The notes beneath the pieces were generated by a model. That model ran no database searches and was not told the origin of the DNA. It worked only from the letters and a program-made list of their open reading frames with translations. From the IMG/VR virus record IMGVR_UViG_3300027797_000019, positions 33,024 through 97,023 of that record: a DNA stretch of 64,000 nucleotides. One strand, 5' to 3'. Positions 5,697 to 40,400 of this stretch are shown one piece after another (position 1 is the stretch's first letter; every line of letters starts with the position of its first letter). The position numbers and the translations under genes were made by a program. This stretch comes from a virus.

Positions 5697-6371
5697 ATGG
5701 TAACTATTGGAGAAGTAATATCTAGGGTGCGTAATCAAGTTAAGTCGGTAAAGCAAGACGCTTTTTTAACCGACCGTTTTCTTCATTCCCTTATTCGCAA
5801 ATACGCAGCACTAATGATGCGACGTCAGGACAACCTGAATCGCATTATGAAATTTAACTCTGTATTTCAAGCTCTTTCTTTTGTTGAGCTTATTGAAATT
5901 GATAAGATTGAAGCACAATGTCATTGTGTTGAAAGTGGTTGCACATTTAAAAGAACAAAAGATAAAGTACCAGCTTTAATGCAGGGTTACTGGGGTCCTC
6001 TTATGAGGTCGGTTACAAGTATTGATATAAGTGAAGAACTTGTACCAACATTTCCGCACACATTTGAAAAGATTGCAAACCAAAAGACGTTTAAATACAA
6101 TAGGAAAAAATACTATTGGTATTTAGACGGGTATTTGTATTTCCCAAATCTAGAGTGGGATGCTATTAGAATTGAAGGTGTGTTTGAAGAAGACATTAGT
6201 AAATACAATTGCGATATTAAAGATGATTGTTTGTATATGCAGGATCGTGGATTTCATGTTCCTGAATTCCTTTTTGCAGAAATCGAACAGAATGTTGTAA
6301 GAGATCTCGCGGGAATGATTCAGATTCCTTCTGATATTATGCAAGACAACAGACACCTTGCTAGACAATAA
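5697..6371 (+). CDS. Ring / tail tubular (head-tail connector) protein
   Basis: N-terminal TIGEVISRVR helix, YYWYLDGYLYF...IRIEGVFE pattern, crAss synteny (IHF-ring-ring-muzzle). Confidence 0.6.
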   Translation: MVTIGEVISRVRNQVKSVKQDAFLTDRFLHSLIRKYAALMMRRQDNLNRIMKFNSVFQALSFVELIEIDKIEAQCHCVESGCTFKRTKDKVPALMQGYWGPLMRSVTSIDISEELVPTFPHTFEKIANQKTFKYNRKKYYWYLDGYLYFPNLEWDAIRIEGVFEEDISKYNCDIKDDCLYMQDRGFHVPEFLFAEIEQNVVRDLAGMIQIPSDIMQDNRHLARQ

Positions 6372-6382
6372 AACATTAAACG

Positions 6383-7477
6383 ATGCTTACGGAACTTCAA
6401 TATAGGACATTTGACGAGCTTCTGCAGAGCGTTGAGATTGACATGAAAGGTGTCGATAGTCAAGGTTATGTAGAACCACAAGAATTGCTTAAAGTAGCAA
6501 TTAAAGTCAACAGAGAATTAGGTTTAAAAATCAATCCTTCTAGACAGAAGTGTATTGAAATACATAAAGGAAAAGCCAGACTACCTGAAGATTTTAACGT
6601 GTTAAATTTTGCCTTGGTTTGCGAGTCAAGAAATGAGCATCCTATAGTTAGAAAAGAGAAGACTTACAACCAGGGTTTATTAGAGGGTGTTTTAATGGCA
6701 CAGAACATTCTTTCTAGAACAAGTGTTGATCAGTTTACGATTACAATGGATTTACAACCTAATGGTAATCTTATCAGTCATACTCTAAATACAATGGATG
6801 TAATTGTACAAGCACAATTACCTGATGGAACCCTAGCTTCATTTGATTTTTCTACACCAAGTACAGGTGAGATTATTTTAGACAATGATACAGCACAATT
6901 AATTACAGGTGTAAAGATTATCATTATTGGTAAAAAGTCAATTACAAATTTTGGTAGTCAACAACATACTAATCTTAATAATGACGACAATAATCCTTCA
7001 GTTACCTATATCTATAATAACGTAGTTAATACTTATAAAAGATTAGTACCAATTGAAATTAGACCCAGCAGAAAAATTATGAATGACTGCTGGAATCTTA
7101 CTGTAAAAAGTCATTACATAGGTTACTTAGAAAATGGATTTTTCCATGTCAATTTTGACGAGGGTACAATTTATCTAAATTATTCTTCTGTAATGGAGGA
7201 TGACGCGGGTAATCTTTTGGTTTTTGATCACCCTATTGTAAATGAATATTATGAATATGCACTAAAAGAGCGAATCTTTGAGAATATGTTTTTGAGTGGT
7301 GAGTCTTCAGTACAAAACAAATTGCAGTTTATATCTCAGAAATTGAGAATGTCAAGAAATAATGCATTTAGTTATGTAAATACTCCTGACTTTAATGAGT
7401 TGAAGCGCGTTTGGGAAATGAATAGAAAAGCGCAATACCACAACTACTACAACATGTTTAAGAGCAATATACGATGA
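6383..7477 (+). CDS. Ring / tail tubular protein with inserted beta-sandwich domain
   Basis: KARLPEDF and YLENGFFHVNFDEGTIYLNY...DDAGNLLVFD motifs typical of crAss tubular proteins; synteny. Confidence 0.65.
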   Translation: MLTELQYRTFDELLQSVEIDMKGVDSQGYVEPQELLKVAIKVNRELGLKINPSRQKCIEIHKGKARLPEDFNVLNFALVCESRNEHPIVRKEKTYNQGLLEGVLMAQNILSRTSVDQFTITMDLQPNGNLISHTLNTMDVIVQAQLPDGTLASFDFSTPSTGEIILDNDTAQLITGVKIIIIGKKSITNFGSQQHTNLNNDDNNPSVTYIYNNVVNTYKRLVPIEIRPSRKIMNDCWNLTVKSHYIGYLENGFFHVNFDEGTIYLNYSSVMEDDAGNLLVFDHPIVNEYYEYALKERIFENMFLSGESSVQNKLQFISQKLRMSRNNAFSYVNTPDFNELKRVWEMNRKAQYHNYYNMFKSNIR

Positions 7478-7827
7478 GCATTATACAAAAAAAGATTAAG
7501 GTTGGTGTTTATGATGCCAATGTGGTTTTTATGGTAACTGACTCAATGGAGGAAGTTGCGATAAAAACATTTCGTAAAACAAAAGAAATCTGGTCTATTG
7601 AAGACGCAGACGGTTGTGTTTTTTATACAACAGGTTTGTACTATTTAGTGCTTCTACAAGAACAAATATCTCACAACCTTATAGCTCATGAAATATTTCA
7701 TCTTTCAACTCGGATATGCGAAGATAGATATATCGAAGATGAAGAAACAAAAGCTTGGTTAACAGGTTATCTTACTGAAAACATTTATAAGTTTTTAGAC
7801 AAAAAGAAAATTGAAATAAAGCTATGA
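7474..7827 (+). CDS. Small HExxH zincin-like metallopeptidase
   Basis: IAHEIFHL followed by DEETKAWL (third ligand Glu); ATGA overlaps with both neighbours. Confidence 0.6.
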   Translation: MSIIQKKIKVGVYDANVVFMVTDSMEEVAIKTFRKTKEIWSIEDADGCVFYTTGLYYLVLLQEQISHNLIAHEIFHLSTRICEDRYIEDEETKAWLTGYLTENIYKFLDKKKIEIKL

Positions 7828-10800
7828 GTCAAGGGCTTGATAATAAAAGTAGTCTGCAGAAGAACAATACCTTTACAAAAGGTATGGTTAAAGACTTTAA
7901 CGACCTATTTGTCGGTGAGGGGTTGTGGACTCATGCCCGTAATGCGGTAAACAATTCACATCTTGGTGAGGTTGGTGTGTTAGGAAATGAGCAGGCAAAT
8001 AGATACTGTACTACAGCTCCCTACACTATAATAGGATTAATCCATAAGTCAAGTAGTGAGTGGATTGTATTTTCTACAAATAATACCGATAGCGAAATTG
8101 GAATTTTTGATGAAGGTTTGTGTAAATACACAAAATCTGTAAATGATAAATGTCTTGGTTTTAAGACAACTAATTTAATTACTGGTGCAGCAAAAGAAAA
8201 CTTTGACTGTACTCACTCTGTTTATTGGCAAGACGGGTTAAATCCTGATCGGTATATTAATCTGGATAATATACCCTATAAGAAGACTGGCGTCAACCTT
8301 TCCCCAGATCCTTCATGTTATATTCCAGAATATTCAGATGAATTGGATTGTGAAAAGACCCTCTTGCAATCTATAGTAGAAACACCCTGTATTCGTATCA
8401 GTAAGGGGAAAGGTGCCGGTCAATTACTTAATGGTTCTTATCAAGCTGTAATCGCTTACTCTGTAAATGGTGTTAGAGTAACGGATTACTTTAAACCAAG
8501 TAATGTTCAATCGCTGTGGAGTCATAGTGGTGTAGGTGGTTCAATGGAAATAGATATTGATGAAATAGACACAACATTTGATGAGTTTGAACTTGTTATG
8601 GTCACTACAGTCAATTTGCAAACTGTAGCTCGCAGAATAGGATATTATAATACTCGTCAAAAGAAAATAGTTCTTGACCTTATAGATCAAGCATGGGTAA
8701 CAATACCCTTGTCTTACATTCCTCTTCAAAATGCACTTTATTACAAGAGTGATAAAATATTTGAGATTAATGGTTACCTACTAAGATCTGGTGTAACAAC
8801 AAGACCTGATTTTAATTATCAACCTTTAGCAAACCAGATTCAGTCTAAATGGGTTTCTGTAGAATATCCTTCTAACTATTACATTAGAGGTGGTAATAAA
8901 ACTTCATACATGCGTGATGAGGTCTATAGCTTCTTTATTCGTTGGATTTATAAAACTGGTCATCGTTCTGCATCTTATCATATTCCAGGTAGAGCACCAA
9001 TAGCAACCGACACGCAAATAGCTACTGGTAATGATGTTTTGCCTGGTGAAACAATAAATTGGCAGGTTTATAATACTGCTACAAAAACAGCGGCTTCAGG
9101 AATACTTCCAGACGGTGGGGTATTATCTTTCACAGGTCAAATGGGGTATTGGGAATCTACAGAAAAATATTCTGATGACAAACCTGATATTTGGGGTCCA
9201 TTGTGTGGTAAACCTATTAGACATCATAAGTTTCCTGATAACGTTACAACACATATACACTCTAACGCAGGTTCGAAAATTTCAATACTAGGTGTTGAAT
9301 TTTTAAATATTCAGCACCCGTTAGATTTAGATGGTAATCCTATAGAAGATATTGTAGGATATGAGATATTAAGAGGATCTCGTGAGGGTAATAGAAGCAT
9401 AGTTGCTAAAGGATTGTTTAACAACATGTGGGAATATGAAATTGATGGACAACCTGGTAAAAAAGGATTGTATCAAAATTTTCCATATAATGACTTGAAT
9501 CCAAATGTGTTTTTAAGAACAGCGTTGAAAAAAGATAATGGTAATAAACCTGATCACAGTTCACTTGCACCGTCAAGTTATCGTAAGGATATTTACTCTT
9601 TTCATTCACCTGATACTACATTTAACAAACCTTTTTTCTCTCAAGGTGCAGTAGAAGTATATACGGTTGAGCATGGCTCTGTTGAAGGTAAATTTGAATT
9701 TCCATATAAGCATCCTAAAAGTAAATTAATTACAGATGGTGCTTTTGTATTTGCATCTGTTGTCGGTGCCGGTATAGCAGTTCTTGCAGCTTTAGGTAAG
9801 GCGACAAACAGGACTGATGTAAGCGCTACATTTCTTGGTGCAGGTGTAATAAAAATATCACAAGCTGAATCAGGAACTGCTACAGCTATTCCTGATATAG
9901 CAAGTATGATTACAGCAAGACCTGTAGGTACAGTTGCTGGTATTCTGTTAGCAGCACCAGCATTAATATATTATGGTGCTCTCGGTATTCAATCTGCTTT
10001 GGAAGCTATTTATGCATTTAGTCCATTTAGGGATTATGCTTTGCAAGTAAACTCTCACGGATTTTACAATAATGCAATACCGATTACTAATAAAGGTAAC
10101 AGGCGTAGAGCAGTTACAGATAATTCTGGAAGATATATTGATCCATTTGTTCAAGCATATGTTGATAATTTGAAGATTAATAATTTATTTAGAAATAAGT
10201 TTGTAGCAGTAAAACTATCTAGTCAATTATCTGACCCACATGTTAATGTTGGTAATAATTCTATTAAGGATAATTCAAGAGTAAGAATTCATGATTTAGA
10301 AAAGCATGATGATCCTACAAATGGCGTGTATAGTAGAAATACATCTGCATATTATGGGGCAATTAAATTGAGCTATGAGAATCAATATGGACAATTAGAT
10401 TCTATTGTTCAGCTTCCTATTGAAAGTTGCATATTCAAAACACAACCTGGTTCAATTAGATATCGAACTGGAGCATTATTTGGAGGAGATGTGTATATTA
10501 ATCGATACACTGAAAAAAATCCATATATGTTTTTTAATCAGTGGTTACTAGGTGAAAACAATGGTACAGAATACAACTATAAGAATTATATTAATGGACC
10601 GTTTCCTCGTTACTGGGCAAACTTAGAAAGGTTTGATTTAAATGATTTTACAATCAAACTAAATTTAAAGAAAGGTTTAGAACTTACTACACCAAGTGAT
10701 TTTCATCATATGGATAGAGCTGGTAGTAAGACTGGTGTTTTTGTACTTAAGCGAGCGTTTTTTTATCTATTTAATAATGGCGTGAGAGATTTCTTTGTGG

Positions 10801-12458
10801 AATCCGAAATAAACCTTGCACATAGAGATTACGGTGAATTGTTACATGAAAAACATTTTGAACCTGAAGGATACTCTGACTACAATGAAATGTTTAGATC
10901 AGATATTATCACTAAAGGTAACTACTATAAATATGATTTTTCTTTAAGCGTATCTAAGCTATATAACAATTTTTCAACTTGGGGTAAAGTACTTCCTAGA
11001 AGTTATGATCCACGAGTTGCGGTAGATTGTTTTGAGTATTATCCGAGTCGAGTTATTTATTCATTACAACAACAGGATGAACTAAAACGTGATAATTGGA
11101 AAGCATATCTTGCAAATAACTATAAGGATTTTGGAGGTAAGGTAAGTAATATCAAAAGCTTAAATGAGAATGGTGCTGTTATTCTATATGAAGATTCAGA
11201 ACCTACTCGTTTTGTAGGCGTAGATACACTTCAAACTCAAGGTGGTACAAAAATTACTATAGGGGATGGTGGATTATTCCAACAGAACATGCAATCCCTT
11301 GTTAACGCTGATGATATTCTAGAATATGGAAGTTGTCAAAGTCATAGATCAGCTATAAATACTCCTTATGGATTGTTTTACATTTCTCAGAAAATTGGTA
11401 AAGTGGTCCAATATGGTGGCGGAGGTTTAGAAGAAATATCTCGTAACGGTATGCGTCTCTGGTTTGCTGAGTACTTACCATCTAAGTTATTGCAAGCATT
11501 TCCTGATTATGATCTCTATGATAATCCTGTTGAAGGAATTGGTTGCCAGACAATATATGATGGTCAGTATGATTTGATCTATTTTACAAAAAGAGATTTT
11601 AAACCATTACTACCAGAAATTAAATATGACATAGAAGCTAAGAAGTTTTATGTTCCTTGTAATTACAATCTAATAGAAAACCAACCTTTAACACCGGTTG
11701 GTAGCAGATGCTATGTTGAACTTACAAATCCTAAATATTTTGAAGATTGTAGCTGGACTATCAGTTATGACCCTAAGTCAAAAGTTTGGGTAAGTTTTCA
11801 CGACTGGCATCCTAGTTTGACATTACCTGCATATGAGCATTTCTTAACAGTTAAAGGTTCAGAGTTTTGGAAACATAATGATCGTTGTGATCTTTATTCT
11901 AACTACTACGGTATTGACTATCCTTGGGAAGTAGAATTTCCTGTGACAAGTGGTAACAATGTAACTACTACAAGAAGTGTAGAATATTTACTGGAGAACT
12001 ACAAATACTATAATGATTGCCAGGACAGTTTTGCTCCTCTTGATCATAACTTTGACAGGGCTGTTATTTATAATAACGAGCAAATATCAGGTGTATTAGA
12101 GTTGCAGGTAAAGCCTAAAAATAATCCTATAGCATTACTGCAGTATCCAATTGCTGGTACTAATTCAGTACAAATACATTACTCAAAAGAAGAGAATAAG
12201 TATCGATTTAATCAGTTTTGGGATCTAACCAGAAACAGATTTGAATTTGTGGGCGGAGCTGTACCAATGTGGATTACCGAAGCTAATGGATATAAAAGGC
12301 GTATTAATCCTACATATATCAATTATGCTAAACCTCCGCTGGAACGTAAGAAATTCCGTCACTACGGAAATAGGTTGTTCTTGAGAAAGAATATAAGTGG
12401 TGAAATAAAAATGCTTCTTAAATTATTTACAACCAAACAACTGGTAAGTTTTAGATAA
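7824..12458 (+). CDS. Muzzle / tail stabilisation protein (crAss, P22 gp10-like)
   Basis: N-terminal FTKGMVKD...THARNA, YMRDEVYSFFIRW...SYHIPGR, FGGDVYI, C-terminal WTISY...WVSFHDW; 1544 aa; synteny. Confidence 0.75.
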   Translation: MSQGLDNKSSLQKNNTFTKGMVKDFNDLFVGEGLWTHARNAVNNSHLGEVGVLGNEQANRYCTTAPYTIIGLIHKSSSEWIVFSTNNTDSEIGIFDEGLCKYTKSVNDKCLGFKTTNLITGAAKENFDCTHSVYWQDGLNPDRYINLDNIPYKKTGVNLSPDPSCYIPEYSDELDCEKTLLQSIVETPCIRISKGKGAGQLLNGSYQAVIAYSVNGVRVTDYFKPSNVQSLWSHSGVGGSMEIDIDEIDTTFDEFELVMVTTVNLQTVARRIGYYNTRQKKIVLDLIDQAWVTIPLSYIPLQNALYYKSDKIFEINGYLLRSGVTTRPDFNYQPLANQIQSKWVSVEYPSNYYIRGGNKTSYMRDEVYSFFIRWIYKTGHRSASYHIPGRAPIATDTQIATGNDVLPGETINWQVYNTATKTAASGILPDGGVLSFTGQMGYWESTEKYSDDKPDIWGPLCGKPIRHHKFPDNVTTHIHSNAGSKISILGVEFLNIQHPLDLDGNPIEDIVGYEILRGSREGNRSIVAKGLFNNMWEYEIDGQPGKKGLYQNFPYNDLNPNVFLRTALKKDNGNKPDHSSLAPSSYRKDIYSFHSPDTTFNKPFFSQGAVEVYTVEHGSVEGKFEFPYKHPKSKLITDGAFVFASVVGAGIAVLAALGKATNRTDVSATFLGAGVIKISQAESGTATAIPDIASMITARPVGTVAGILLAAPALIYYGALGIQSALEAIYAFSPFRDYALQVNSHGFYNNAIPITNKGNRRRAVTDNSGRYIDPFVQAYVDNLKINNLFRNKFVAVKLSSQLSDPHVNVGNNSIKDNSRVRIHDLEKHDDPTNGVYSRNTSAYYGAIKLSYENQYGQLDSIVQLPIESCIFKTQPGSIRYRTGALFGGDVYINRYTEKNPYMFFNQWLLGENNGTEYNYKNYINGPFPRYWANLERFDLNDFTIKLNLKKGLELTTPSDFHHMDRAGSKTGVFVLKRAFFYLFNNGVRDFFVESEINLAHRDYGELLHEKHFEPEGYSDYNEMFRSDIITKGNYYKYDFSLSVSKLYNNFSTWGKVLPRSYDPRVAVDCFEYYPSRVIYSLQQQDELKRDNWKAYLANNYKDFGGKVSNIKSLNENGAVILYEDSEPTRFVGVDTLQTQGGTKITIGDGGLFQQNMQSLVNADDILEYGSCQSHRSAINTPYGLFYISQKIGKVVQYGGGGLEEISRNGMRLWFAEYLPSKLLQAFPDYDLYDNPVEGIGCQTIYDGQYDLIYFTKRDFKPLLPEIKYDIEAKKFYVPCNYNLIENQPLTPVGSRCYVELTNPKYFEDCSWTISYDPKSKVWVSFHDWHPSLTLPAYEHFLTVKGSEFWKHNDRCDLYSNYYGIDYPWEVEFPVTSGNNVTTTRSVEYLLENYKYYNDCQDSFAPLDHNFDRAVIYNNEQISGVLELQVKPKNNPIALLQYPIAGTNSVQIHYSKEENKYRFNQFWDLTRNRFEFVGGAVPMWITEANGYKRRINPTYINYAKPPLERKKFRHYGNRLFLRKNISGEIKMLLKLFTTKQLVSFR

Positions 12459-15400
12459 TGGAGAATTTATATAAATACATTTCATTTGATGGTTATCGAA
12501 ACGATAGTCCTGATAGATACAACCCTGTAAATATTATTCCTACAGGTCGTATTTCTATGAGAGATGTTAATTATCCTGTTTTTGGTATAGACGAATATGG
12601 TAATGGAGGTATTATGTATCCTGGTAATGATTATCAGTTTACAGGAAATACTGTTTTAGAAATTCCTATGATGCAGCGTGGGGGACAACCTGTATATGAT
12701 AACATTCCTAGTCCAGCTGTTATGAGGTCTAAAGCTCAAGCAGATCATGAAGCTGATATAGTATTAAGACAGAAAGCTCTTCAACCTATTACAAAGCCAG
12801 TTATTGATTTTATGCAGGAATGGATGAGTTCACCTATGTATAAAGCTATGCTTCAAAAGAGCAACGGTTCTAGTATAGCTAAAGGAAGAGAGAAACAGCT
12901 TCAGACAATGCGTGCACCTGGTTCATTTAATATAGATGTTGACTTAAATCCATATCATGATTGGGTAGATAATTTTTTTGTACCTAGAACTTTAGGTTCA
13001 TACGGTATAAATACCCTTACTGGGGAAAATAAAATCTATATAGATAAAAAAGAGACCGATCCAAAGAGACGTAAAGAAATTGCAGTTCATGAACTTTCTC
13101 ATGCTACTGATAATCCTAATGGTGCTGGTGGAACACCATTATTACCCGCTGCTGATATTGCTAAGATGCAAGCATACAGAGCTGCATTTGATAAAACAAG
13201 GAAATCTAAACCTGAAGACTGGCAGACTGAGTTTTATAACTATTTAGCTGAACCAACTGAAACAAGAGCTAGATTAAATACACTTAGATATCTTGGTAAA
13301 CAAAAAGGTATTTATGATCCTTTTACAGAGAAGATTGATAAAAACAAGTTAGATAAGTTTAACTCACTTTTTTCAAATGATATTTCTTTAAGACAGCTAA
13401 GAGAAATATACTCTGATGAACAGATAACAGATATGCTAAACAGTATTTCTAAAGTACCATCTGTTTCAAGTATCCCTTTAGCAAAAGGCGGTGGACAGCA
13501 CGGTGGTCTCGACAGATGGTTCGCTGAAAAGTGGGTTGATGTTAAGACAGGTAAAGAATGTGGTAGACAAGAAGGTGAAAAACGTAAAGGTTATCCCGCA
13601 TGTCGTCCTTCTAAAAGAGTATCTACTGATACTCCGAAAACAGCTTCAGAATTATCTTCTGCTGAAAAAGCAAGATTTAAAAGAGAGAAAACATCTAGTA
13701 AAAGAATTTCATATAACCATAAGAAAGAAGAAGGTGGTGAGCTTGAATTAGCTCAATATGGATATATGATACCACCTGCTGGATTCAATCTTATGCTTGG
13801 AGCATCAGAGTTATATAACTATTTCTTTGGTGATGAACCTAAAGAAGTAAGTAAACCTCAGGTTAAGAATGTTAGTCCAATGGGTTCTATGTATCAGCTA
13901 TATAATGCTGATTTAAACCAGTTCAAATCACAAAAGACTAATAATGATAAACTAAACCAAAATAACTCAGGAAACATTAATCTTTCATCTGGTAGATTTC
14001 AAGGTGCACAAGTATCGCCAGAAGTGATAAAAGAAGCTGTTGCATCTGCTAAAGCCCAGGGAATAGATCCGTGGTTAATGCTATCTGTAATCGGAAGAGA
14101 ATCAACATTTGGTAGTGGTACTGATGCAAACATAAAAAGAGCAGGTAGTAAATCAAAATTGGTATCTGGTTGGGATGTTGCAGAGAATTATACCCCATAC
14201 GATCCTTTAAGATTTCTTGCAGACAAAAAAGTTCCGGGTGTTAGTACAACTCGTGATGCACACGGTTGGCATTATAAGTTAGATGATAAAGCTGCGTTGA
14301 ATAAATATTTATCACAACATCCTGAATTAGTAGCTCAATATCAAAAGAAAGTAGAGAGTACCCCCGAACTTGGTAATCTTGATAGTTTTGATTTAGCTGC
14401 TAAATTTATTAAAGAACGAGGTCTTGCTCGTTATAACCCTGGAGATCCTAATTATTCTTCAATGGTTAATCAAGACATGAAATTATTACAATCTGACCCT
14501 AAATTAAAAGCATATATGAAAACGCTTGGATATGAGAACGGTGGCGAACTATTTGATATGAAATCAGGTGGTAATGTACCGACAAATCCTTCACTATGGA
14601 GTAAAGCAAAAGCTGCTGCAAAAGCAAAATATGATGTGTATCCTTCTGCATACGCAAATGGTTTTGCTGCTAAATGGTATAAACAGCGCGGAGGTAGTTG
14701 GAAAAAAGCTGCTGAAGGTGGATGCTTTGAATGCGGTGGACAGTTTGCAGAAGGTGGTGTTAACTATAATGACATGTTGAATCAACCAGTATTTATTCCA
14801 ACAAACTTTGTTCAGTTTGGTGGTGTAGCAAATCCACTAAAGCAACTGCAAAATATGGATACGGGTGATAAAATACAATTAGCAAAATTAGCAATGATGT
14901 TTGCTAAAGATGGCGGTGAAGCTGACGGGGGAATGGCACTTACACAAGTAAATGCAATGATTGATAGACTTAATAACCTTAAGAATTTTATTACTCTTGA
15001 ATCAGATTTAGATCCGTGGATCAGTGATAAAATATCTGTAATGAATCATTCTGCTACTGCAATTAATGATTACATGCAATATGGTGAACAAGAAGAACCT
15101 GAGGAAATGAGAGAAGGTGGAGGTATACCTACAAGGTATAAAAATATGGGATTCAGTAAGGTGGGTGTTAAAAAAGAATCTTCTCGTCCTGGTAAGAAAT
15201 GGATGGTACTTGCTAAAAAAGGCGATGACTATAAAGTTGTTCATGGTGGTTACGATGGTATGAAGGACTTTTCTCAACATGGTTCTGAAAAACGTAAAGA
15301 TCGTTTTTGGGATCGTATGGGTGGAAAAGATTCTGCAAAAGCAAAAGATCCATTTTCACCATTATACTGGCATAAGAAGTTTGGTACTTGGGCTGAAGGT

Positions 15401-16552
15401 GGTGAACCTCAGAATGAAGGGTTTCAAGCATTACCCGAAGAAGTGCAAAATAAAATTTTGAAAAGAATGATTGGTGGTGGAGAAGAAGGCGATTGGATGA
15501 CAATTGGTAAAACTACTAATAGAAACATTGCAGCTTATCAAGATAAACCTACCAGGAGCATGGTGAACTTTGGTGCTAATACAACACTTAATCCTACACT
15601 ATATGCTATTGAGGGTATGGATGACAAAGGTTTTTTTGGTGATCTTGCTGCTATTGCATTGGGTGCTGGTGCACTAAATAATGTTGGATTAGGTTACAGA
15701 AAACTTTTGGGTCCTGCATCTAAGACACAGACTCAGATGAATACTAGGACTGGTAAAATGGTAACATCCAATCTCATGGATCGTGATAGTAAGAAATTAA
15801 TGAATCAGTGGGAAAAACCTGAGTTTTATCAAGAACCTGTTCAAGATGAGTTAAGACGAAAGCAAAAAATGAATTTGAGTGTTCCACCGACTGGTGTAGA
15901 TACAATTCCGATGGATAGTTTTGAAAACATGGCAAAGTATGGAGGATATTATGTAAGCAAAATGCTAACCGGTGGTCAACCTATGTTGTCAAAAGATGAA
16001 TGGATGCAACAGAATGGTAGAGGGTTAATGGGTCAAGAATTACAAGATGAAAAAGATTATCAAGCGTATGTGCAACAGTGGCAGCTTGAGAATGAAAATT
16101 CAACAACTCAACAAACGCCTGCAACTACAACAACTACAACCCCTGAAGTAACTACAAGACTTGGTAAATCAAAGATGATTCCAAATCTTGAGTTAGATCC
16201 AGAAGGGCAAGCTCTTGCTTACGGTACTATTTCTGCGATAAGTACAATTGCTAACAGAAAGAATCGTAAAGACACCTTAAAAGAGTACGAAGCAAATCTT
16301 CAAAAGTATGGTAATACTGACTTTAGATTTGATAACAATTATGTCAATCGTGATATGTTTGGTCAATACACTACTAACAGAGCACAAGGTCAAAACTTTA
16401 TTTTAAATAAAACTACTTATGCTCAAGACATGGGTAATCAATTTAATTATGGTTTTGGTACAAACTTTAAAGAAGGTGGTGAATATGATTTAACACCTCA
16501 GCAGATTGCAGCTATCATGGCTGCTGGTGGAGAGATTGAGTTTATTGATTAA
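12458..16552 (+). CDS. Modular virion cargo protein (putative GG-cleaved polyprotein) with zincin and lysozyme/SLT-like modules
   Basis: HELSH...EPTETRARL at 13088; GIDPWLMLSVIGRESTFG...YNPG at about 14060-14440; about 16 x-x-x-GG motifs between modules. Confidence 0.65.
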   Translation: MENLYKYISFDGYRNDSPDRYNPVNIIPTGRISMRDVNYPVFGIDEYGNGGIMYPGNDYQFTGNTVLEIPMMQRGGQPVYDNIPSPAVMRSKAQADHEADIVLRQKALQPITKPVIDFMQEWMSSPMYKAMLQKSNGSSIAKGREKQLQTMRAPGSFNIDVDLNPYHDWVDNFFVPRTLGSYGINTLTGENKIYIDKKETDPKRRKEIAVHELSHATDNPNGAGGTPLLPAADIAKMQAYRAAFDKTRKSKPEDWQTEFYNYLAEPTETRARLNTLRYLGKQKGIYDPFTEKIDKNKLDKFNSLFSNDISLRQLREIYSDEQITDMLNSISKVPSVSSIPLAKGGGQHGGLDRWFAEKWVDVKTGKECGRQEGEKRKGYPACRPSKRVSTDTPKTASELSSAEKARFKREKTSSKRISYNHKKEEGGELELAQYGYMIPPAGFNLMLGASELYNYFFGDEPKEVSKPQVKNVSPMGSMYQLYNADLNQFKSQKTNNDKLNQNNSGNINLSSGRFQGAQVSPEVIKEAVASAKAQGIDPWLMLSVIGRESTFGSGTDANIKRAGSKSKLVSGWDVAENYTPYDPLRFLADKKVPGVSTTRDAHGWHYKLDDKAALNKYLSQHPELVAQYQKKVESTPELGNLDSFDLAAKFIKERGLARYNPGDPNYSSMVNQDMKLLQSDPKLKAYMKTLGYENGGELFDMKSGGNVPTNPSLWSKAKAAAKAKYDVYPSAYANGFAAKWYKQRGGSWKKAAEGGCFECGGQFAEGGVNYNDMLNQPVFIPTNFVQFGGVANPLKQLQNMDTGDKIQLAKLAMMFAKDGGEADGGMALTQVNAMIDRLNNLKNFITLESDLDPWISDKISVMNHSATAINDYMQYGEQEEPEEMREGGGIPTRYKNMGFSKVGVKKESSRPGKKWMVLAKKGDDYKVVHGGYDGMKDFSQHGSEKRKDRFWDRMGGKDSAKAKDPFSPLYWHKKFGTWAEGGEPQNEGFQALPEEVQNKILKRMIGGGEEGDWMTIGKTTNRNIAAYQDKPTRSMVNFGANTTLNPTLYAIEGMDDKGFFGDLAAIALGAGALNNVGLGYRKLLGPASKTQTQMNTRTGKMVTSNLMDRDSKKLMNQWEKPEFYQEPVQDELRRKQKMNLSVPPTGVDTIPMDSFENMAKYGGYYVSKMLTGGQPMLSKDEWMQQNGRGLMGQELQDEKDYQAYVQQWQLENENSTTQQTPATTTTTTPEVTTRLGKSKMIPNLELDPEGQALAYGTISAISTIANRKNRKDTLKEYEANLQKYGNTDFRFDNNYVNRDMFGQYTTNRAQGQNFILNKTTYAQDMGNQFNYGFGTNFKEGGEYDLTPQQIAAIMAAGGEIEFID

Positions 16553-16635: not shown

Positions 16636-19600
16636 ATGAAAGTAAGAATCACTAAAAAACCCGGAAGCACTGGAGACCAACGTAATTACGGATTGGTCAG
16701 AGGAAGTGCGTTCGATTCATTTGAAAGCAAGGATAATACCCCTATCTCTGATACAATGGGTGCTGTACCACGAAATCAAGCTAATATTGAAGCTGAGGGT
16801 GGAGAAACTATTGTTGGAGACTTGAACAATGACGGATACTTGGAGCATTTTAAAATTTCGGGTAAGCGTCACTCTAAAGGTGGTGTACCTTTGAATGTTC
16901 CTGGTGGATCATTTATTTTTTCAGATACCCCTAAACTTGCTATTAAAGACCAAGAAGTTCTTGCAAGATTTGGAAAGACTTTTAAAAAAGGTGGGTACAC
17001 TCCTGCTGAACTTGCTAAGCAGTATGACATCAATAAGTTTATTCAGCTAATGAAGGATGATAACTCTGATGCTATTACAAAGCGTACAGCTGGAGATATG
17101 GTTAAAAAGAATTCACAGAAGCTCGCTGAACTTGCATTAGTACAAGAATCAATGAAAGGTTTTCCTAGTGGTGTTCCTTCTATTGCTGCTCCTTTAATGG
17201 GTGCAGAACTAGGTCAAGCTAAGTATGGTGGGAGATTACCTAAAATGGAATTGGCAGGTGATCCTATTTACAATAAAACAACACCTATGTATATTAATGG
17301 GCAGATGTATTATTGGAAAGAAACTGTAGACAAACCCGGATGGGGAACTGGTGATACTGTTGTATTGTATAATCCCCAGACAGGTAAGGAACTTAAAATG
17401 GATAAAGACAGATATGAAACTTTATCTAAAAAAGAGTTTTTACCTACATATGATAATGTTTATGGTAAAGGTTTACCTGATAGAATTAGAGGTGTTAAAT
17501 ATCTAAACTGGGGACTTACACCAGAGGATGCTAAAAATATTAATGGTAATAATCAGCGAGTTTTGACAGATGGTGCAAGAAGAGTTTATCAAGCCGGTCA
17601 AAGATTTTCTACGGATGGGCAAAACTATTTTGAAATTGTAGATCCTTTTGCATATACTGAAGGTTGGGGTGAATCTTCATATTACGGTCCAGGTATGGGG
17701 ACTTATAACGTACAAGAAAAATCTGGTCCTGCTGTTGTAGTTAGACCTTTAAAAGTTACATATGATAATCAAGGTAAACCGGTCTATACAAGAAATGACG
17801 CAGCACCTTTGAGTTATATGACTGACGGAACTATTCTTGACGCACAACAAAATAATAAATTCACGTTTGTAGGAGGAACTCCTGTTTTTAGTGGAAATGT
17901 TGTTAAGGGTGACGCATCTACTGTTACTGGTGGGTTGGAAGGTACTATAGAAAATAAACCTACATATACTAGAACTGGTAAAACATTTGAAAAAGGTGGT
18001 TTAATACCCGTATTTGCAGAAGGAGGTCCTGGCGATAATAAAATCTATGAAGTAAAAGATGCAAGTGGTAAAATTCTATATGAGTATCGTGGAGTTACTT
18101 ATAACAGTTTAGATGAGGCAAAAGCTGCAAGAACAAAAAATGCTCCTGCTGGAAATTCTGGTAAAACTGAACCAAAAACAGGTGGTACACCTACTTTACC
18201 TAAAGAACTTGAATCTGTAAAGGATTATGTAAAGTGGGATAACAATGTTAAGAAATGGCGAGTAACACTACCAGATGGAACATCTTCAGAGGTACGTGAT
18301 AAAGTGGCTAACACTTTGACAAACTATGGTTTTAAAGATGTAATTCAGAGTGGTTCAAAAAAGATAACTACATCTGCTAAAGATTACGATTATTTCTATG
18401 CAGGTTTAAGACCTCAAGATTTTGAAGGTAAAATGGTAAGCAAGTTTATTGGAGCTGAAGAAGCTGGTAAGCTTGATGAAATTGCAACAAGAAAAAAATA
18501 TTTTGAAATTTTAGGAATTACAGGACTAACAGACGATCAGTTAAAAGATCCAAAAGCTCTTTATAACAATAAAGAGTTTATGGAAGGTAAATACTATCCT
18601 GCTTTCCAAAAAGTTCTTCCTCAAGATAAGTTTAGAAAAGTCATGAAAAATGACACTAAATGGGGACTTGAGCACTATGACGCTATACCTGATTTTGGTA
18701 CACCCGAAAAAATACCAACGCCAGAACTTGTTTATTGGTGTCTTCCCTCAAAAGAACAAGGTAAAGACGGTACATCAGGTCAGAGTAAAAAAGAGGAAGC
18801 ACCCGCAGGTGCTGTATTTTATACAAGTGTAGCAGAAAGAGATGCTGCTTGTAAAAATATTCCTACAACCACAACTACTCAGACTAAACAGACTCCTAAA
18901 AACTGGTGGTCACAAGATATTGGAAAATTTGCTGTTGGTCTTACAGATAAAGTGACAGAATTTGACCCCGTTCTTTATCAAGTACCTATTGTAGAAGAAG
19001 ACTATGTTTTACTTGATCCAGCCCGTCAGATTGCTGCAAGACAAGAGCAATTAAATAAGGGTATTGATTTAGTAGAAAATACCAGCGATGGTCAAGTAGC
19101 CCGTGCAAACGTAATGGGATATTCTGGTCAAGCAGCAGAGGATATGGCAAATGTTATTTCACAATATGAACAAGGTAATGTTGGTATTGTAAATAACGCA
19201 CTTGCAAGAAATGCTCAGGGAATGCGTCAAGGAATGTTAGAGAATGCTAAGTTACGCAGCGCATACAATGACGCACTTGCAGTTAAAGGACAAGCAGCTG
19301 AAAACGAAAGAAGACAAATCAAGTATCGTAATTTAGCAAACTGGATGGAAGGTGTTACAAATGCACAAAAGACAAATGAATGGCTTCCAATTCTTACACC
19401 TTCTTACAGAGTTAATGCATTAGATGGTTCTATTAACTATGCAGAAGGTTATGATCCTCGTAGTATGTATACTGGTGCAATTGTAGGAACAAATCCTGGA
19501 CTTTACGATCCTAGTCAAATTGCTTCATCTGTTGCTACAGCTTATGATGAAGGTTATCGTGCAAATATCAGTAAAGGTGAAGATGCTGCTAAGCAAGCTG

Positions 19601-19755
19601 GTAATGCAGCTGCACGTGCAGTACAAATGCGATTGAATAACCAAAATATGGGTATTGGTACTAATGGTTCAATGATGTATCCAGGAGCAGGAATGAATCA
19701 ACAACAAGTGTTGTGGAACATGCTCAACGGTATGCAAGACCCCAATAATCCGTAA
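16636..19755 (+). CDS. crAss-type cargo/ejection protein
   Basis: ANIEAEGGETI...GKRHSKGGVP...FIFSD motif recalled from crAss cargo proteins; helical Q/A-rich C-terminus. Confidence 0.6.
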   Translation: MKVRITKKPGSTGDQRNYGLVRGSAFDSFESKDNTPISDTMGAVPRNQANIEAEGGETIVGDLNNDGYLEHFKISGKRHSKGGVPLNVPGGSFIFSDTPKLAIKDQEVLARFGKTFKKGGYTPAELAKQYDINKFIQLMKDDNSDAITKRTAGDMVKKNSQKLAELALVQESMKGFPSGVPSIAAPLMGAELGQAKYGGRLPKMELAGDPIYNKTTPMYINGQMYYWKETVDKPGWGTGDTVVLYNPQTGKELKMDKDRYETLSKKEFLPTYDNVYGKGLPDRIRGVKYLNWGLTPEDAKNINGNNQRVLTDGARRVYQAGQRFSTDGQNYFEIVDPFAYTEGWGESSYYGPGMGTYNVQEKSGPAVVVRPLKVTYDNQGKPVYTRNDAAPLSYMTDGTILDAQQNNKFTFVGGTPVFSGNVVKGDASTVTGGLEGTIENKPTYTRTGKTFEKGGLIPVFAEGGPGDNKIYEVKDASGKILYEYRGVTYNSLDEAKAARTKNAPAGNSGKTEPKTGGTPTLPKELESVKDYVKWDNNVKKWRVTLPDGTSSEVRDKVANTLTNYGFKDVIQSGSKKITTSAKDYDYFYAGLRPQDFEGKMVSKFIGAEEAGKLDEIATRKKYFEILGITGLTDDQLKDPKALYNNKEFMEGKYYPAFQKVLPQDKFRKVMKNDTKWGLEHYDAIPDFGTPEKIPTPELVYWCLPSKEQGKDGTSGQSKKEEAPAGAVFYTSVAERDAACKNIPTTTTTQTKQTPKNWWSQDIGKFAVGLTDKVTEFDPVLYQVPIVEEDYVLLDPARQIAARQEQLNKGIDLVENTSDGQVARANVMGYSGQAAEDMANVISQYEQGNVGIVNNALARNAQGMRQGMLENAKLRSAYNDALAVKGQAAENERRQIKYRNLANWMEGVTNAQKTNEWLPILTPSYRVNALDGSINYAEGYDPRSMYTGAIVGTNPGLYDPSQIASSVATAYDEGYRANISKGEDAAKQAGNAAARAVQMRLNNQNMGIGTNGSMMYPGAGMNQQQVLWNMLNGMQDPNNP

Positions 19756-29400: not shown

Positions 29401-32400
29401 GTGGTACTATTTATCACGAAGCTTTTCACCATGTTTTCAGAAAGTTGATGACTTCAAAAGAACGTTCTAGACTATTCAAAGAAGTTAAAGCAAATACTAA
29501 AAACAGTAAATATTTTACAGACGAATACCGTAAATCATTTGCTCAACGTAGAAAGTTAACTGGTAGCAAGGAAAGAATCGACAACCTTATTGCTGAAGAA
29601 ATTTTAGCAGAAGGGTTTAAGTCATATATGACAAAAACTAAAGCTTCAAAACCTGTGGGTTTGCTTGCTAAATTATTTAGCTTACTTAAAGATATTATTG
29701 CATTCTTTACTAAGAATGCTAGTACTATCGATAAGGTTTATGGTAGAATTGCTACAGGATATTATAAAAATGCATCTGTTATTAGTAACTATGAAACAGG
29801 TTCGGTAGCTTTTGAACTAGCCCCTACTCGACATAGAATTGTTCAAAAAGAAGACGGTACTGTTAAAAGGGTATCTAGCTTCCTTCCTGTAGAAGATCAA
29901 AAGCAATTAGCATATAGACTTGCATACGAGATCATGAATTTTGATCCTCGTGAATTTGCCGAAATCAATCCTGATATAAAGTTAACACTAAGAGATAAGT
30001 TCGACTTGCAGAGAAAACTTCTTGCAATGTCTGACTTTAACATTGAAAGTTGGATTGCAACAAATCCTGGTAAGAATAGTGTTATTCAGGAAAACTGGAG
30101 ATCAAGACTTGAAGACATGCGTGCTATTTTAGCACATGGTGTGTTGCAATTTAATATAGATGGTCAAATGATGGCTTTTCTTCCAAAAGCCGAAAACATG
30201 ACTGGTAATCCATCTTATGACAATATTGATGATTCAGGTGTATCTCAAGTTTATGACAAATCAGTTGACGTACTTTTTGATCAAGTCAAGAGTATTTTAA
30301 AACACATAAACTTTGGGTCTGCGGTTGCGCATAAAGAGCAAGAAGATATTGTAGAGCAGGATATAATCAATCAGGATGATTTTGATATTTCTGAAGATGA
30401 ATTAGGATCTGCTTCTGATTTGGACTCATCTTTCTTTAATATTAATCCACTTGAAGGATTACCTAGAGAAATGAGAAGATTTTTGTCTTTGGTTAAATAT
30501 GAAACTGAAGATGAGAATGGTGTCAAGTATAGTAGAATGGTTGATGGTTCTAACATCTTCAATTTATTGATGAAGATTACCGCTAATGCTATGCCGGAAG
30601 AAATTATTCCTAGAATTGCATTGGCTGGTGAGCAATACCGCTATGATGAAAATATTGAAGAAGCTCGTTCTTTAGAAGCAGTATTTAATGTTCTTCAAAA
30701 GAATATTAGGTTTAATGAAAGCTTTGAACCTATTGGTGGAGATTTACTTCTATACTCTCAAGTAATTGATACATTCCACAATGCTGAAATGGATTCATTA
30801 CTTACCAAGCTTAACACTAAAGAAGAATATGATGATCAGAATCAGCTTATTTCATCTCAAACAAGCACATCGCAGGTAGAAAAACTTACTCGTGCAGACG
30901 TTCAATCTAAAATGGATGGATTAGAATCCAAGCTTAAATCTACTAATACAAAATCTGCATCGACAGAAGAATATAAACAAGCTGCTGAAACACTATCTAA
31001 TCTTGCGCTTTCTATTTATCAAAATACGGGTAGAATAACAGATCTTATTGTTTCTAACCAAGAGGTTAAAATTGAATCTTTAGTAGATTCATTATACAAG
31101 AACATGCAGATTCTGGGTATAAACATTCCTAAATCTCTACTTAGATTTTCATTGCTATCAATTGATGTAAAAGAAAATGGAGTACTTCCAAGACAAGAGG
31201 AGAACGTATTTAGACATTACTATGCATTTGAAAGTTTTGCGCATAGTGATGAATACCTACCTAAAAACTTCTTTAAGAATCTCAGTGACATGGCAAAAAA
31301 CATGTCAAAGGGTGTACGTTTCAATACAATCCAGGGACAAAAACTTGATATTTTAAGTAGTTCAAGAACATCAGGTAATGATGGATTTTATGCTTCATTG
31401 CGTAGAGCTATGAAGTATGTGCTTAAAATGGACCCTAAAGAACTACCATCTGTGGTGACAAATGCAGAAGGTAAACCAGTTTACAGATATGTTAAATACA
31501 CTCCTGCTGTATTGTTGCTTCAGGAAATAAAAAACAAAGGTCTTGAAGAAGCTCTGGCATCTAGTATTTACTATAGCGAATACCTCAAACCATGGTTTGA
31601 AGATAACATCTTTGTTGCATCTGCACTGAAAGATAGCGCTGAAGGAGATAAGAAAACTGTAGAGAGAAGACTTGCTTTAAAGACATTTTTTGAAAATCTA
31701 TCAGTAAGTGTCAACGCAGGACTTGAACAAACAGTCAATGGTCAAAGAGTTAGATCTGCAAACTATAAAGGTCTAAATGCTAGATCACAGTATTTACAGG
31801 AGTTAATGAATTTCTCTCAACGTTCAGTATTAAAGTCTGAACATCAGATGTTAACAGCAAACGATGAAAGAGTTTCTTTGACTGGAGAGGTTACAGTATT
31901 TAATCGCAACCTTACTCAGCTTGAAGCTTCGCAAACTAACTTTCTGATAAATGCAATGTATATAAACTTTGCACCAAAGATTGTGGCAGGGAAAGTAGCA
32001 TTCGAGAATACCCCTGTGCAATATCTGCGGGTAGCAGTACAGCAAGAATTTAATCGTATACAAAGAGAATGGTCTGCCAGATCTTTGCGTGATAGTTTAT
32101 ACGAGCAGGGTAATAACACATATCTTAATAATTTTAATGCTAAGAAGACACCTACAGGTGAAATCATTACCGATGATACATCTTTGGCGCAGTCTAAGAA
32201 ATTAAGAGCTTATCAATTTAATAACCTAGATGATTTCTTTGTTACTGGTAAATCTGTTTCTGAGTTTGAAGAAGGTACTGTTCAATTTGAAAGAGCAACA
32301 CTAAGAGATGAACTTATAGAAATAGCAAAAAGAGACGGTGAAGACAAGATTGATTTCAAAAATCTAGATTCAGATTTGAAATCAAGACTTGATAAACAAC

Positions 32401-37415: not shown

Positions 37416-40400
37416 ATGAGTACTTGTAAATTTTTATACAACGGACTAGAGTACAACGAGAGCGATATTAAATTGCTTCTTGAAAATGAGGTTATTGAAT
37501 CTGCTCAATATAATCTGACTGATTATAAATTAAGCAACCGTGATAGTAATGTTGCAAAAGCATTTAGATTAAGAGAAATATCTCCTGGTCGATATCTTGC
37601 TACACCCAAGCAATTAGAGGGTTTGAGAAAATGGACTAGTTCTCCTGATGTAAGGGGTGTAGGTTTATTCTACAAACCATATTATACATATGGTGAAAAC
37701 TTATTTGAAGTTAGTTTTAGTACCCCGCAAGCTAATCTAACGGGCGTATTGACTCCTCAAATTCGTGCTAAACAATTAAGAGAGTCTGAACAACAAGATG
37801 TTATCCAAAAAACATTAGACAGAATGTCTGAGGTTTTCCCTGGTTTAAAAGTTTCGTTTGTTAATCCTGAAGATCTTGTTCAATCAGAGCACGGGATTAA
37901 TGTAGATCGAATTAATGGTTTCTTTAAAAATAGTACGGTTTATCTTGTCAATGGTCGTGCAAATACTTCAATAGCAATAGAAGAAGTACTGCACCCATTT
38001 GTCAATACACTGTATGTAGAAAATAGACCTTTGTTTGATCAGCTTTTAAGAGCTGGTAAAAAGCTCGATATTCAGTTTTTTAATGAAATAAGTAACAGGT
38101 ATAAAAACGGTACAGGATATAGCGCTTTAGATATCAATAAAGAGTTTGTAACACAAATGTTACAACGTGCTGTAAAACAAGAGTTTGCAAATAATCCTAC
38201 GCGCCCTGCTTCTGAATTTATGCGTTTGATGGAGCAGTTTTTTGGATGGCTTAAAAATCTAATTTCTGAGATTGTATATCTAGTTAATAGTCGTGGTAAT
38301 CGTGTGATTGATATATCGAGTCTTCCTGAAAAATTAAGTTTTGAAAATTTAGCGGTGTTGCTAAATACTGCTGAGGTAGAGTTTTATATTAACTACAATC
38401 AATCAGGAATAGCATACAGCTTGGACGAAGCTAAACAGGTAAATGATTTATTTAATAGTCAACCCGATGAAAATCTAAGAAGAAGTAATACCCAATATAA
38501 ACTTGATCGCATTAACTCTCAGATTGAAACATTAAAAGCTGTTGTAGAAAATCCAAGAGTTAAGCAAAATGCTAAGCAAGTAGAAACACTTACTAAGCTT
38601 ATGGAGAATGCTGAAAAGAATGCAAAGTTCTTTCGTGATAGTTTAGAAGCTGAAGCTCAAGGACGAAAGCCCCTTGAGTCTGTAAGTGTTAGTGGATTCA
38701 TCGGTTCATCAGAATTTACAACAGTACAAGATTACACCGACTTTAAAGAGTTCGGTACATTTATGCATGCTATACTTGAAGAAGTTCAAGAGGAAGCTAC
38801 AAAAGAAAACAAACGTCTCAGAGAAATATTATCTGAAGAAAAGTTTAAAACAATCCTCGAATCATACCGCAAGAAGAATCCTTTCCAGATTCAGAATTTG
38901 AAAGATGAAGAAATGTTTGAGATGGCACTACAAGTCATTGATGTGCTTGGTTCCAATGTGTCTGCCAGCAATATCATTTTACCTGAACTTACTGTTGGTG
39001 CAAGTGTATCAACTTCTGAGACGGGTCGTACAATGATGCTTGGAAGACTGGATATGGTTGTAATTGATATTACCGGACAACTTCATATTGTAGACTTCAA
39101 AACTAAAAAGGTTAAGCAACTTGTTGTACCTCAAAAAGATGGTGTAACTGATTTTAATATTAACCGGGTATACAAAGAACTTGCAAATAATAAGATTAAA
39201 ATTAATTCGACTAACGGTACAGCTGTAGAATTTCAGGGTCAAAAAAGATCTACTTATGATACATGGAATGCTCAATTGCTTGCATACGAGTATATGCTAA
39301 GACAAAATGGTATTAATGTAGGTAAAAAGGAAATCATTGCTCTAATATATCAAGCAGATATTAATAAGATATACCAAGGGTTTGCTGTTCAAAAGTTTGA
39401 AGGTAACTTCTATGAATATGCTGGGATGGTCAGTATTGAAGGAGATAATCGAAGTGCTGCATTTTCTGAAATTGGTGCTAGGGAATACGATAAAATTAAA
39501 AAAGTTGTTTCCAAATATGTAGAGATTGGTGAATCTCAAGAAAACCAGCAGGAAGTAAATGAGGAGCGCATGGCTTTTGATATGACTGCTGAGCAGTACA
39601 AGCTTTTTGTTAGCTCACTTAAAAAAGCTGTTTCAGATAATATAGATGCTTTATATGGAGAGAGATCTAATCTAAAGTCAAAAGAGGGATATGATCAGGA
39701 AGTTGATACTATCAACAAAAGAATAGAAACTCTCAAAACATTTAAAGACATTATTGATAAAGGAGGTGACATCGCTTCTTCTCTTAAGTTTGCACGTGTT
39801 GTTGAACAAATGGATATTGATATCAATAACATGCTTAAAAACTTTAACGAGGCATTGTCTAGTACCGATGAAGTAGCAAAATCAAGAAAGGTATTAGTCT
39901 ACAAAAAAATGTTGGATAATACCCGTGAAATCATGCGCCTTGTTGAAAATCAAATTAATAGAGCTGAATTTGATGGTAAGATTCAAAAGACTGGTTTTAT
40001 GTACCAGCTTGTTAAAGACTTATCTGCCAAGCTTGATATTATGCAAGCTGATTATAGAGAATATGCTGTTCCGCTTTTTGTAAAAATGATACAGTCTACA
40101 TTCTCAGAAAAAACTTTTGAGGCTGTTGGTGATGATATGCGTATGGCTTTGGAACCCAAGATTAAAAAACTAGAAGAAGAAATTCAAAATCTTATTGATG
40201 GTACACCACTCAAAGGTTTAGATAAGCTTAAATTAAAAGCACTTAAGTTTTTAAATAAAGAATCTTATGATGAGGTTATGGATAAGCTGGATCCTAATAA
40301 GAGAGGTGTCATATATGCTATTGAAGCTAAACAACTTGAGCTAAAAAGATTAAAACTTATCTATGAAACTGGATTTAACTATGATACAGAAAGTATTAAA

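Follow-up and report, generated by a model that had tools for sequence, protein, structure and literature searches.

Crassviruses are among the most abundant phages of the gut and are common in the sea, and the organisation of the cargo that they inject is almost unknown. In crAss001, the gene that follows the muzzle gene encodes cargo protein 1 (gp45), pieces of which were resolved in two places, at the portal within the capsid and along the tail barrel's inner wall, with short segments bound to the ring proteins, the muzzle and the portal (PMC10172136; PDB 7QOG and related entries). The closest known concepts to the protein presented here are this protein and the polyvalent proteins that Iyer, Burroughs, Anand, de Souza and Aravind described in 2017 from phages and conjugative elements (PMC5512222), and in the sections considered here neither description mentions a conserved junction peptide. 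The subject of this work is P0001, the product of an open reading frame (ORF, 12458-16552) in a 64,000-nucleotide stretch of viral DNA (the window), which corresponds to bases 33024-97023 of the 97-kb contig of IMG/VR record IMGVR_UViG_3300027797_000019, with an estimated completeness of 81%. Its modules are joined at Gly-Gly seams, and this conserved junction pattern is real and apparently undescribed so far.

Translation of the ORF placed all 16 x-x-x-Gly-Gly motifs listed in the initial annotation at the nucleotide positions given there, with the Gly-Gly pair (GG) at residues 75, 344, 426, 695, 704, 754, 766, 788, 819, 887, 981, 1006, 1162, 1172, 1340 and 1357. The GG dipeptides of the whole protein amount to 27, versus 11.6 ± 3.1 expected from composition-preserving shuffles (0 of 5000 shuffles reached 27). 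With a z of 5.3, this excess was the highest among the 45 ORFs of at least 150 residues in the 97-kb genome; short Gly-rich ORFs came next (z 3.0-3.6), and the other giant cargo, RNA polymerase (RNAP) and fibre ORFs ranged from -1.6 to 0.9. A database search yielded more than 585 relatives of P0001, of 750-2400 residues, and the best 120 of them contained 2638 GG dipeptides versus 1326 expected. Some pairs of P0001 do not correspond to seams, namely those at residues 930 and 955, within the DUF5754 module, and at residue 224, within the zincin-like module, and relatives have GY or GA in place of GG1357.

Selection on the Gly-Gly pair is strict. When contexts were anchored on conserved module ends, the two glycines were adjacent in 275 of 292 distinct seams (~95%), with the two preceding residues varying freely. 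After redundancy reduction, Met, Phe and Tyr were enriched 3.6-, 3.0- and 2.8-fold, respectively, at position -3 of the pair, and Glu was enriched 2.6-fold directly after it. Where one GG is separated from the next by a spacer of just 4-8 residues, with no module ahead of it, Met, Tyr or Phe stood at -3 in 73-91% of cases, and a fuller consensus was visible, E-[ILMV]-P-E-[MY]-x-x-G-G. The GG codons of P0001 are mostly GGT or GGA, and as GGT represents 71% of all its Gly codons, the choice follows the Gly codon usage of the gene, indicating that the constraint acts on the protein. A role of Met at -3 as an internal translation start was rejected, as Met, Tyr and Phe are interchangeable there.

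Evolution inserts, deletes, permutes and splits modules at these seams. Across 119 relatives, 66% of the internal BLAST breakpoints fell within 5 residues of a GG, versus 15.5% after circular shifts (0 of 2000 shifts). In a 99%-identical orthologue, 200 extra residues are inserted between ...EEGG and ...QQGG, each followed by Glu, and orthologues with 79-85% identity lack the zincin-like module, with ...MGSGG joined straight to QHGGLDRWF; in one relative the order is permuted, the lysozyme-like unit preceding the zincin-like one. In many relatives the gene itself is split: ...YNHKKEEGG of P0001 corresponds to ...YNHKRN-stop at the end of their upstream ORF, and MKSGG-NVPTNPSLW to MANKPNNPSLW at the start of the following one. 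Stand-alone DUF5754 genes (91-108 residues, L059-L068) start with MAIPDRYKNMGF and can end at ...FKTW-stop, precisely between both seams. A cyanopodovirus encodes each half of DUF5872 as a small gene of its own in the interval from the scaffold gene to the capsid gene; in Prochlorococcus phage P-SCSP2 this is where the stand-alone counterpart of the C-terminal half (module 3) lies. Other phages have an undivided DUF5872 gene of 112-114 residues directly upstream of a stand-alone DUF5754 gene (L065 2672-3297, L067 2849-3488, L068 5869-6509). As x-x-G-G is missing when the modules are separate genes, it belongs to the junction. The earlier proposal of self-contained modules bounded by x-x-G-G is hence borne out by orthologue comparison, breakpoints and gene splits, with insertions, deletions, permutations and splits falling exactly at GG. 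Its suggestion that several modules exist as stand-alone small genes in other viruses held for three of them, both DUF5872 halves and DUF5754/Tlr6F. As a separate observation, small and very basic proteins encoded beside stand-alone DUF5754 genes carry KKYAxGG or KYEVGG near their N-termini (L067 4703-5438; L065 3742-4329), so that the aromatic-x-x-Gly-Gly peptide exists beyond fused cargo proteins too.

With at least seven distinct modules (Table 1), P0001 falls within the 2-15 unrelated domains in one polypeptide that characterise polyvalent proteins. AlphaFold models based on family alignments contained confident units at residues 10-72 (beta), 470-694, 705-750, 885-980 and 1175-1215, the last being helical and situated directly after GG1172, and the predicted local distance difference test score (pLDDT) was below 50 at the seams. 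Within the seam-rich spacer, it was below 50 at residues 754-797 and 808-830 and ~54 at 796-805. Module 1 is also found at internal positions in relatives (P0008, P0009, P0011). In the zincin-like module, the HExxH motif (HELSH) and the PTETRARL sequence located ~50 residues downstream were both conserved in an alignment of 15 relatives; the module had weak PHROG matches, to a metallo-protease (E 0.009 only) and to a tail protein, and low AlphaFold confidence. DUF5872 (PF19197) was detected with 69.9 bits (gathering threshold 27.5) in two stretches, of which that at residues 347-413 corresponds to profile positions 52-111; the two halves of the 116-position profile are thus apart, inverted in order and on either side of the lysozyme-like unit.

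Module 4 had no sequence match in Pfam, NCBIfam or the PDB, and sequence searches with the whole of P0001 against PDB chains and NCBIfam were also negative. Its predicted fold, which spans residues 506-697 and includes a conserved GRES motif, matched MltF (VIA-align Z 8.3, rmsd 2.9 Å over 102 residues) and g-type lysozyme (Z 7.2), and ranks 1-15 as well as most of the top 25 were occupied by muramidases, lytic transglycosylases and other cell-wall hydrolases. At E≤0.001, Foldseek matched nothing to a whole 700-residue model, for which only weak lysozyme rows were listed, and a fold search with a second model returned generic helical hairpins only. The block EPDGxMALGQ...SDLEPW of module 6 is conserved in relatives. 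Module 7 constitutes the most conserved part of the family, since all but three of its 57 invariant columns lie within residues 888-982. This segment of P0001 is 74-87% identical to the DUF5754 segments of relatives, including the stand-alone genes of 91-108 residues, and scored 27.3 bits against PF19058, versus a cut-off of 27.4; the precomputed annotation of the sequence collection does list PF19058. DUF5754 corresponds to the Tlr6F family, which is known in phages as well as in polinton-like and giant viruses (PMC12220804), and DUF5872 and DUF5754 both occur in giant viruses and polinton-like viruses.

P0001 resembles the polyvalent proteins (PMC5512222) in the many unrelated domains per polypeptide, its probable delivery with DNA and rapid domain shuffling. 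A zincin-like metallopeptidase and a lysozyme or transglycosylase are typical of those proteins, and the relatives of P0001 add ADP-ribosyltransferase, SET and other effectors. Unlike the situation in P0001, no conserved junction peptide, "linker" or GG motif is described in the sections of PMC5512222 considered here. The extra modules were found in P0008, P0029, P0039, P0057, P0059 and P0073 and comprise ADP-ribosyltransferase (PF03496), SET methyltransferase (PF00856), YkuD L,D-transpeptidase, glucosaminidase and LysM, the Pfam families added by relatives being PF03496, PF00856, PF03734, PF01832, PF01476 and PF12200. Judged from sequence, they suggest that host-directed effectors may share the cassette. 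The idea of an extensible cassette put forward in the initial annotation is supported by these additions, as well as by the 200-residue insert between two GG seams.

Table 1. Modules of P0001 and neighbouring virion genes, in window coordinates
Feature	Position	Strand	Basis
Whole ORF P0001, 1364 aa, modular cargo-position protein, 27 GG dipeptides	12458..16552	+	Translation, motif count
Module 1, aa 1-76, small beta-rich unit, end MQRGG	12458..12685	+	AlphaFold pLDDT 83-90 (aa 10-72), <50 (73-89)
Module 2, aa 78-343, zincin-like unit, end LAKGG	12689..13486	+	HELSH and downstream PTETRARL
Module 3, aa 347-427, basic C-terminal half of DUF5872 (GLDRWFAEKWVD...YPACRP), end KEEGG	13496..13738	+	Pfam PF19197
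Module 4, aa 428-696, lysozyme/lytic-transglycosylase-like, folded core 470-694, end YENGG	13739..14545	+	pLDDT 87-95
Module 5, aa 706-746, N-terminal half of DUF5872 (PTNPSLW...YPSAYA...KWYKQRGG)	14573..14695	+	Second DUF5872 stretch; pLDDT 92-98
Seam-rich spacer, aa 747-825: AAEGG, CFECGG, QFAEGG, VQFGG, AKDGG, EADGG	14696..14932	+	Motif positions, pLDDT
Module 6, aa 826-889, helix pair (MALTQ...DLDPWISDKI...), end MREGGG	14933..15124	+	Helices at pLDDT ~50
Module 7, aa 890-982, DUF5754/Tlr6F-like, end WAEGG	15125..15403	+	Pfam PF19058 at 27.3 bits (cut-off 27.4); pLDDT 80-96
Short conserved peptide, aa 983-1008: EPQNEGFQALPEEVQNKILKRMIGGG	15404..15481	+	GFxALPxYVQxKI conserved
C-terminal region, aa 1009-1364, AKYGG, MLTGG, FKEGG, C-terminal MAAGGEIEFID	15482..16549	+	Conserved in about half of relatives
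Crassvirus tail ring proteins 2 and 1	5697..7477	+	Pfam CrAss_Ring_2 1.3e-22, CrAss_Ring_1 3e-09
1544-aa virion structural protein, muzzle position	7824..12458	+	PHROG virion structural protein 4.2e-71; BLASTP crAss001 gp44 E 2e-05 (weak)
1039-aa ORF, cargo protein 2 position	16636..19755	+	No Pfam/PHROG match; GG 10 seen vs 11.0 expected

Pfam recognised tail ring proteins 1 and 2 as well as the major capsid protein of crassviruses, and PHROGs the terminase and portal. In the window, the genes are arranged in the order ring protein 2 (start at 5697), ring protein 1 (start at 6383), a 117-residue ORF, the 1544-residue ORF and P0001, whose start shares one base with the stop of the upstream ORF, followed by ORFs of 1039, 871, 1345, 3650 and 2232 residues. 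P0001 is most likely the cargo-protein-1 equivalent of an uncultured, crAss-like phage of probable marine origin, its location in the virion being deduced from gene position. As for crAss001 gp45, the gene directly follows the ring and muzzle genes and lies ahead of those for cargo 2 and the virion RNA polymerase, and the protein shares with the gp45 homologues a GG excess, hydrophobic-x-x-G-G motifs and a beads-on-a-string build. Unlike gp45, it is longer and has zincin-like, lysozyme-like, DUF5872 and DUF5754 modules that are absent from gp45. All five gp45 homologues examined, from gut crassviruses, were enriched in GG (z 2.3-2.9) and contained [F/Y]-x-x-G-G, and the resolved pieces of gp45 start at or just after GG motifs. 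Moreover, relatives of P0001 commonly have a GG-bounded module (KGTFKA...KKANFA...GG) that matched cr128 with an E value of 2.8e-23, crAss001 gp45 at residues 362-420 (7.5e-04) and two tandem stretches of DAC17 (6.5e-05 and 0.0077); this module, present in the relatives and not in P0001 itself, was detected only by a dedicated hidden Markov model (HMM), and an hhalign comparison of the P0001-family and gp45 alignments gave a probability of 6.5%. The GG-enriched gp45 homologues and the shared module indicate that the seam grammar is a shared, old feature of the proteins at the cargo-1 position of crassviruses. At the cargo-2 position, gene 55 of DAC17 (L084 4427-5794) has 9 GG versus 2.7 expected (z 4.1), and its crAss001 and cr111 counterparts are not enriched.

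The initial annotation had interpreted the motifs as putative maturation-protease sites, a proposal that found no support, as no matching protease was detected in five genomes, the zincin-like module is missing in four of five relatives and the gp45 model is unbroken. Profile searches at E≤1 covered the genome of P0001 (81% complete) and those of four relatives (95-100% complete). No match was found to Ulp1/C48 (PF02902) or adenain/C5 (PF00770), although a very divergent enzyme could escape these profiles, nor to C39 (PF03412) or to the HK97-type S78 protease. For the head, tail and giant ORFs, no peptidase family was listed by either Pfam or PHROG scans, and for 80 further ORFs of the complete relative G001 there was no peptidase among the 25 best Pfam families of each set, behind which weak matches could be hidden. 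The embedded zincin was rejected as a general processing enzyme because it is missing from close orthologues (P0003, P0005, P0006) and from the genomes of four of five relatives, and a virion-wide maturation protease was considered unsupported because the other large cargo, RNAP and fibre ORFs have no GG excess. The published model of gp45 is continuous over residues 425-552, where it begins at A-F-G-G-W and passes GG427-428, GG434 and GG447; GG427-428 is the seam that closes the shared KGTFKA module, and is hence homologous to a seam of the P0001 family. A literature search on proteolysis or Gly-Gly motifs in crassvirus cargo returned nothing relevant. As protease sites the motifs are at present putative at most, and cleavage may possibly take place after ejection or by a host enzyme.

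On balance we tentatively favour the explanation that the seams are uncut hinges, or joints, between the beads of cargo protein 1. P0001 would then be a polyvalent beads-on-a-string protein kept inside the tail's barrel and the capsid and ejected before the DNA, with the beta module, the zincin-like peptidase, the two DUF5872 halves, the lysozyme-like peptidoglycan hydrolase, the helix pair, the Tlr6F/DUF5754 unit and the C-terminal region as its beads. Each joint would consist of a four-residue x-x-Gly-Gly seam, preceded by the final hydrophobic residue, mostly Met, Tyr or Phe, of the module before it. Staying uncut in the virion, the seams would serve as swivels free of side chains, and perhaps as docking handles, allowing 12 or so copies to pack in a confined space and each module to unfold and refold independently as the chain threads through the portal and the tail channel; effector modules could also be added without disturbing their neighbours. 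The uncut state is suggested by the unbroken gp45 model, the absence of a detectable protease from the five genomes, the dispensability of the zincin and the absence of the motif from other large ORFs. Several observations weigh against these hinges. BLASTP between gp45 and P0001 gave nothing below an E value of 1.9, and the portal-binding domain of gp45 (Pfam crAss_CARG1, PF25725) had no match at E≤1 in the P0001 genome and four relatives. The Gly-Gly pair is hardly ever replaced, though Ser, Asn, Ala or Pro would be acceptable in a linker that only had to be flexible, and the presence of Met, Tyr or Phe at -3 even in spacers without modules looks like sequence-specific recognition. Covalent continuity is also dispensable at some seams, since many relatives split the gene there and the order of modules permutes. 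Finally, peptide-mass lists from the 2018 crAss001 gel were re-analysed, and full-length gp45, which was sought in bands 5-7 (77-100 kDa), was at chance level (4-5 matches versus 3.3-3.8 expected), a weak hint; in the same bands the portal gp20 and the tail proteins gp22, gp25 and gp26 each scored 11-25 in at least one band.

This lack of detection at the expected gel position would, weakly, fit a true polyprotein, whose hydrophobic-x-x-Gly-Gly seams would undergo cleavage, within the capsid or once ejected into the host, so that the modules are freed as effector or DNA-binding proteins. The enzyme responsible could be an unrecognised Gly-Gly-specific protease of the phage, a host protein or, in those members that contain it, the embedded zincin. 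We consider such processing rather unlikely, even though the near-invariant Gly-Gly, the preferences at -3 (Met/Tyr/Phe), -2 and +1 (Glu/Gln), visible also in module-free spacers, and the existence of modules as separate genes, in permutable order and with splits exactly at the seams, are in its favour. Adenain of adenovirus and pS273R of African swine fever virus (ASFV), the latter acting on pp220 and pp62, cut core precursors at Gly-Gly, and P0001 resembles these precursors in being punctuated by Gly-Gly and in its small basic modules, which are reminiscent of core proteins. It differs from them in that no clan CE protease is detectable here and in the place of the hydrophobic residue, which is P4 in the adenain consensus, (M/I/L)-X-G-G-X with the cut after the second Gly, and P5, one position further out, in P0001. 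The hydrophobic position also differs from that of the double-glycine leaders handled by peptidase C39 (-4 and -7), for which there was likewise no profile match. In T4 and phiKZ, internal head and inner-body proteins are cut at short motifs by an identifiable prohead protease that also trims capsid proteins. Those proteins are stored in the head and injected, as P0001 probably is, and like P0001 have several motif copies each; unlike in T4 and phiKZ, no prohead protease was found here, in the profile searches or in the scans of the remaining ORFs, and the GG motif is confined to one gene. Processing of polyvalent proteins by their own zincin domains has been proposed (PMC5512222), and as the zincin is optional in the P0001 family, such autoprocessing cannot be general. 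The continuity of the published gp45 model through a homologous seam also speaks against cleavage.

Sequence-specific recognition could also mean binding. If Met/Tyr/Phe-x-x-Gly-Gly were a docking or loading handle, read by the portal, the ring proteins, the capsid interior, a scaffold or a cargo module, its repeated copies would add up to avid binding during packaging or ordered storage. The motif is indeed multivalent, with tandem copies 4-8 residues apart; gp45 segments are bound to ring proteins, muzzle and portal, with resolved pieces starting at or after GG; and KKYAxGG occurs near the N-termini of the small basic proteins mentioned above. Nevertheless a docking role seems improbable, given the very irregular spacing of the motif, from 2 to more than 250 residues, the lack of an identified partner and the loss of the motif where modules are separate genes, which fits a joint better. 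Lastly, GG could be a functionless scar left by illegitimate recombination at GGT-GGT/GGA microhomology, an origin compatible with module shuffling exactly at GG and with the predominance of GGT and GGA among its codons. We regard this as very improbable, because the codon pattern is the one expected from composition and because a scar would drift, whereas GG is kept in nearly all seam contexts at 35-50% protein identity.

The contig that contains P0001 is collinear with G001, a complete relative of 120.7 kb with terminal repeats, and lacks ~22 kb of replication genes that G001 has. Within that stretch, G001 encodes a tyrosine integrase (L074:10707-11843, bases 50707-51843; Phage_integrase 2.6e-16), which hints at a temperate lifestyle of this crassvirus lineage. 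Elsewhere in the window, a 1661-residue Gly-rich ORF (46217-51202, + strand) ends in a Peptidase_S74 intramolecular-chaperone domain (8.4e-11), a domain typical of self-cleaving tail fibres or spikes and unrelated to the Gly-Gly seams. The giant ORF of 2232 residues (37416-44114, + strand) has a PD-(D/E)XK nuclease domain at residues 444-567 (Pfam 1.3e-08). An ORF of 294 residues (1554-2438, + strand) contains four thrombospondin type-1 (TSP1)/spondin repeats (Pfam TSP1_spondin 1.3e-43) and adjoins an ORF with a fibronectin type III domain (2-1531, + strand); TSP1 repeats are unusual for a phage and may be surface adhesion domains. Finally, a 126-residue ORF in the head gene block (L004:12183-12563, bases 30183-30563 of the same genome) matched Pfam DUF5856 (2.7e-19) and a PHROG of starvation-inducible (Dps-like) regulators (3.7e-26).

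The junction grammar hydrophobic-x-x-Gly-Gly offers a simple rule for parsing large unannotated cargo proteins, and explains the gain and loss of effector modules and their splitting-off as genes. It also ties both halves of DUF5872 and DUF5754/Tlr6F, families of unknown function that are shared with giant and polinton-like viruses, to a virion-cargo context. Cut seams would mean that tailed phages possess a Gly-Gly polyprotein system for which no protease is known, and cargo protein 1 would be a genuine polyprotein giving rise to a dozen small effector, cell-wall-degrading and DNA-binding proteins, which would provide an alternative reading of the gp45 pieces seen in both tail and capsid. Uncut seams would make the motif a novel type of conserved joint between the modules of proteins that have to be threaded through a portal.

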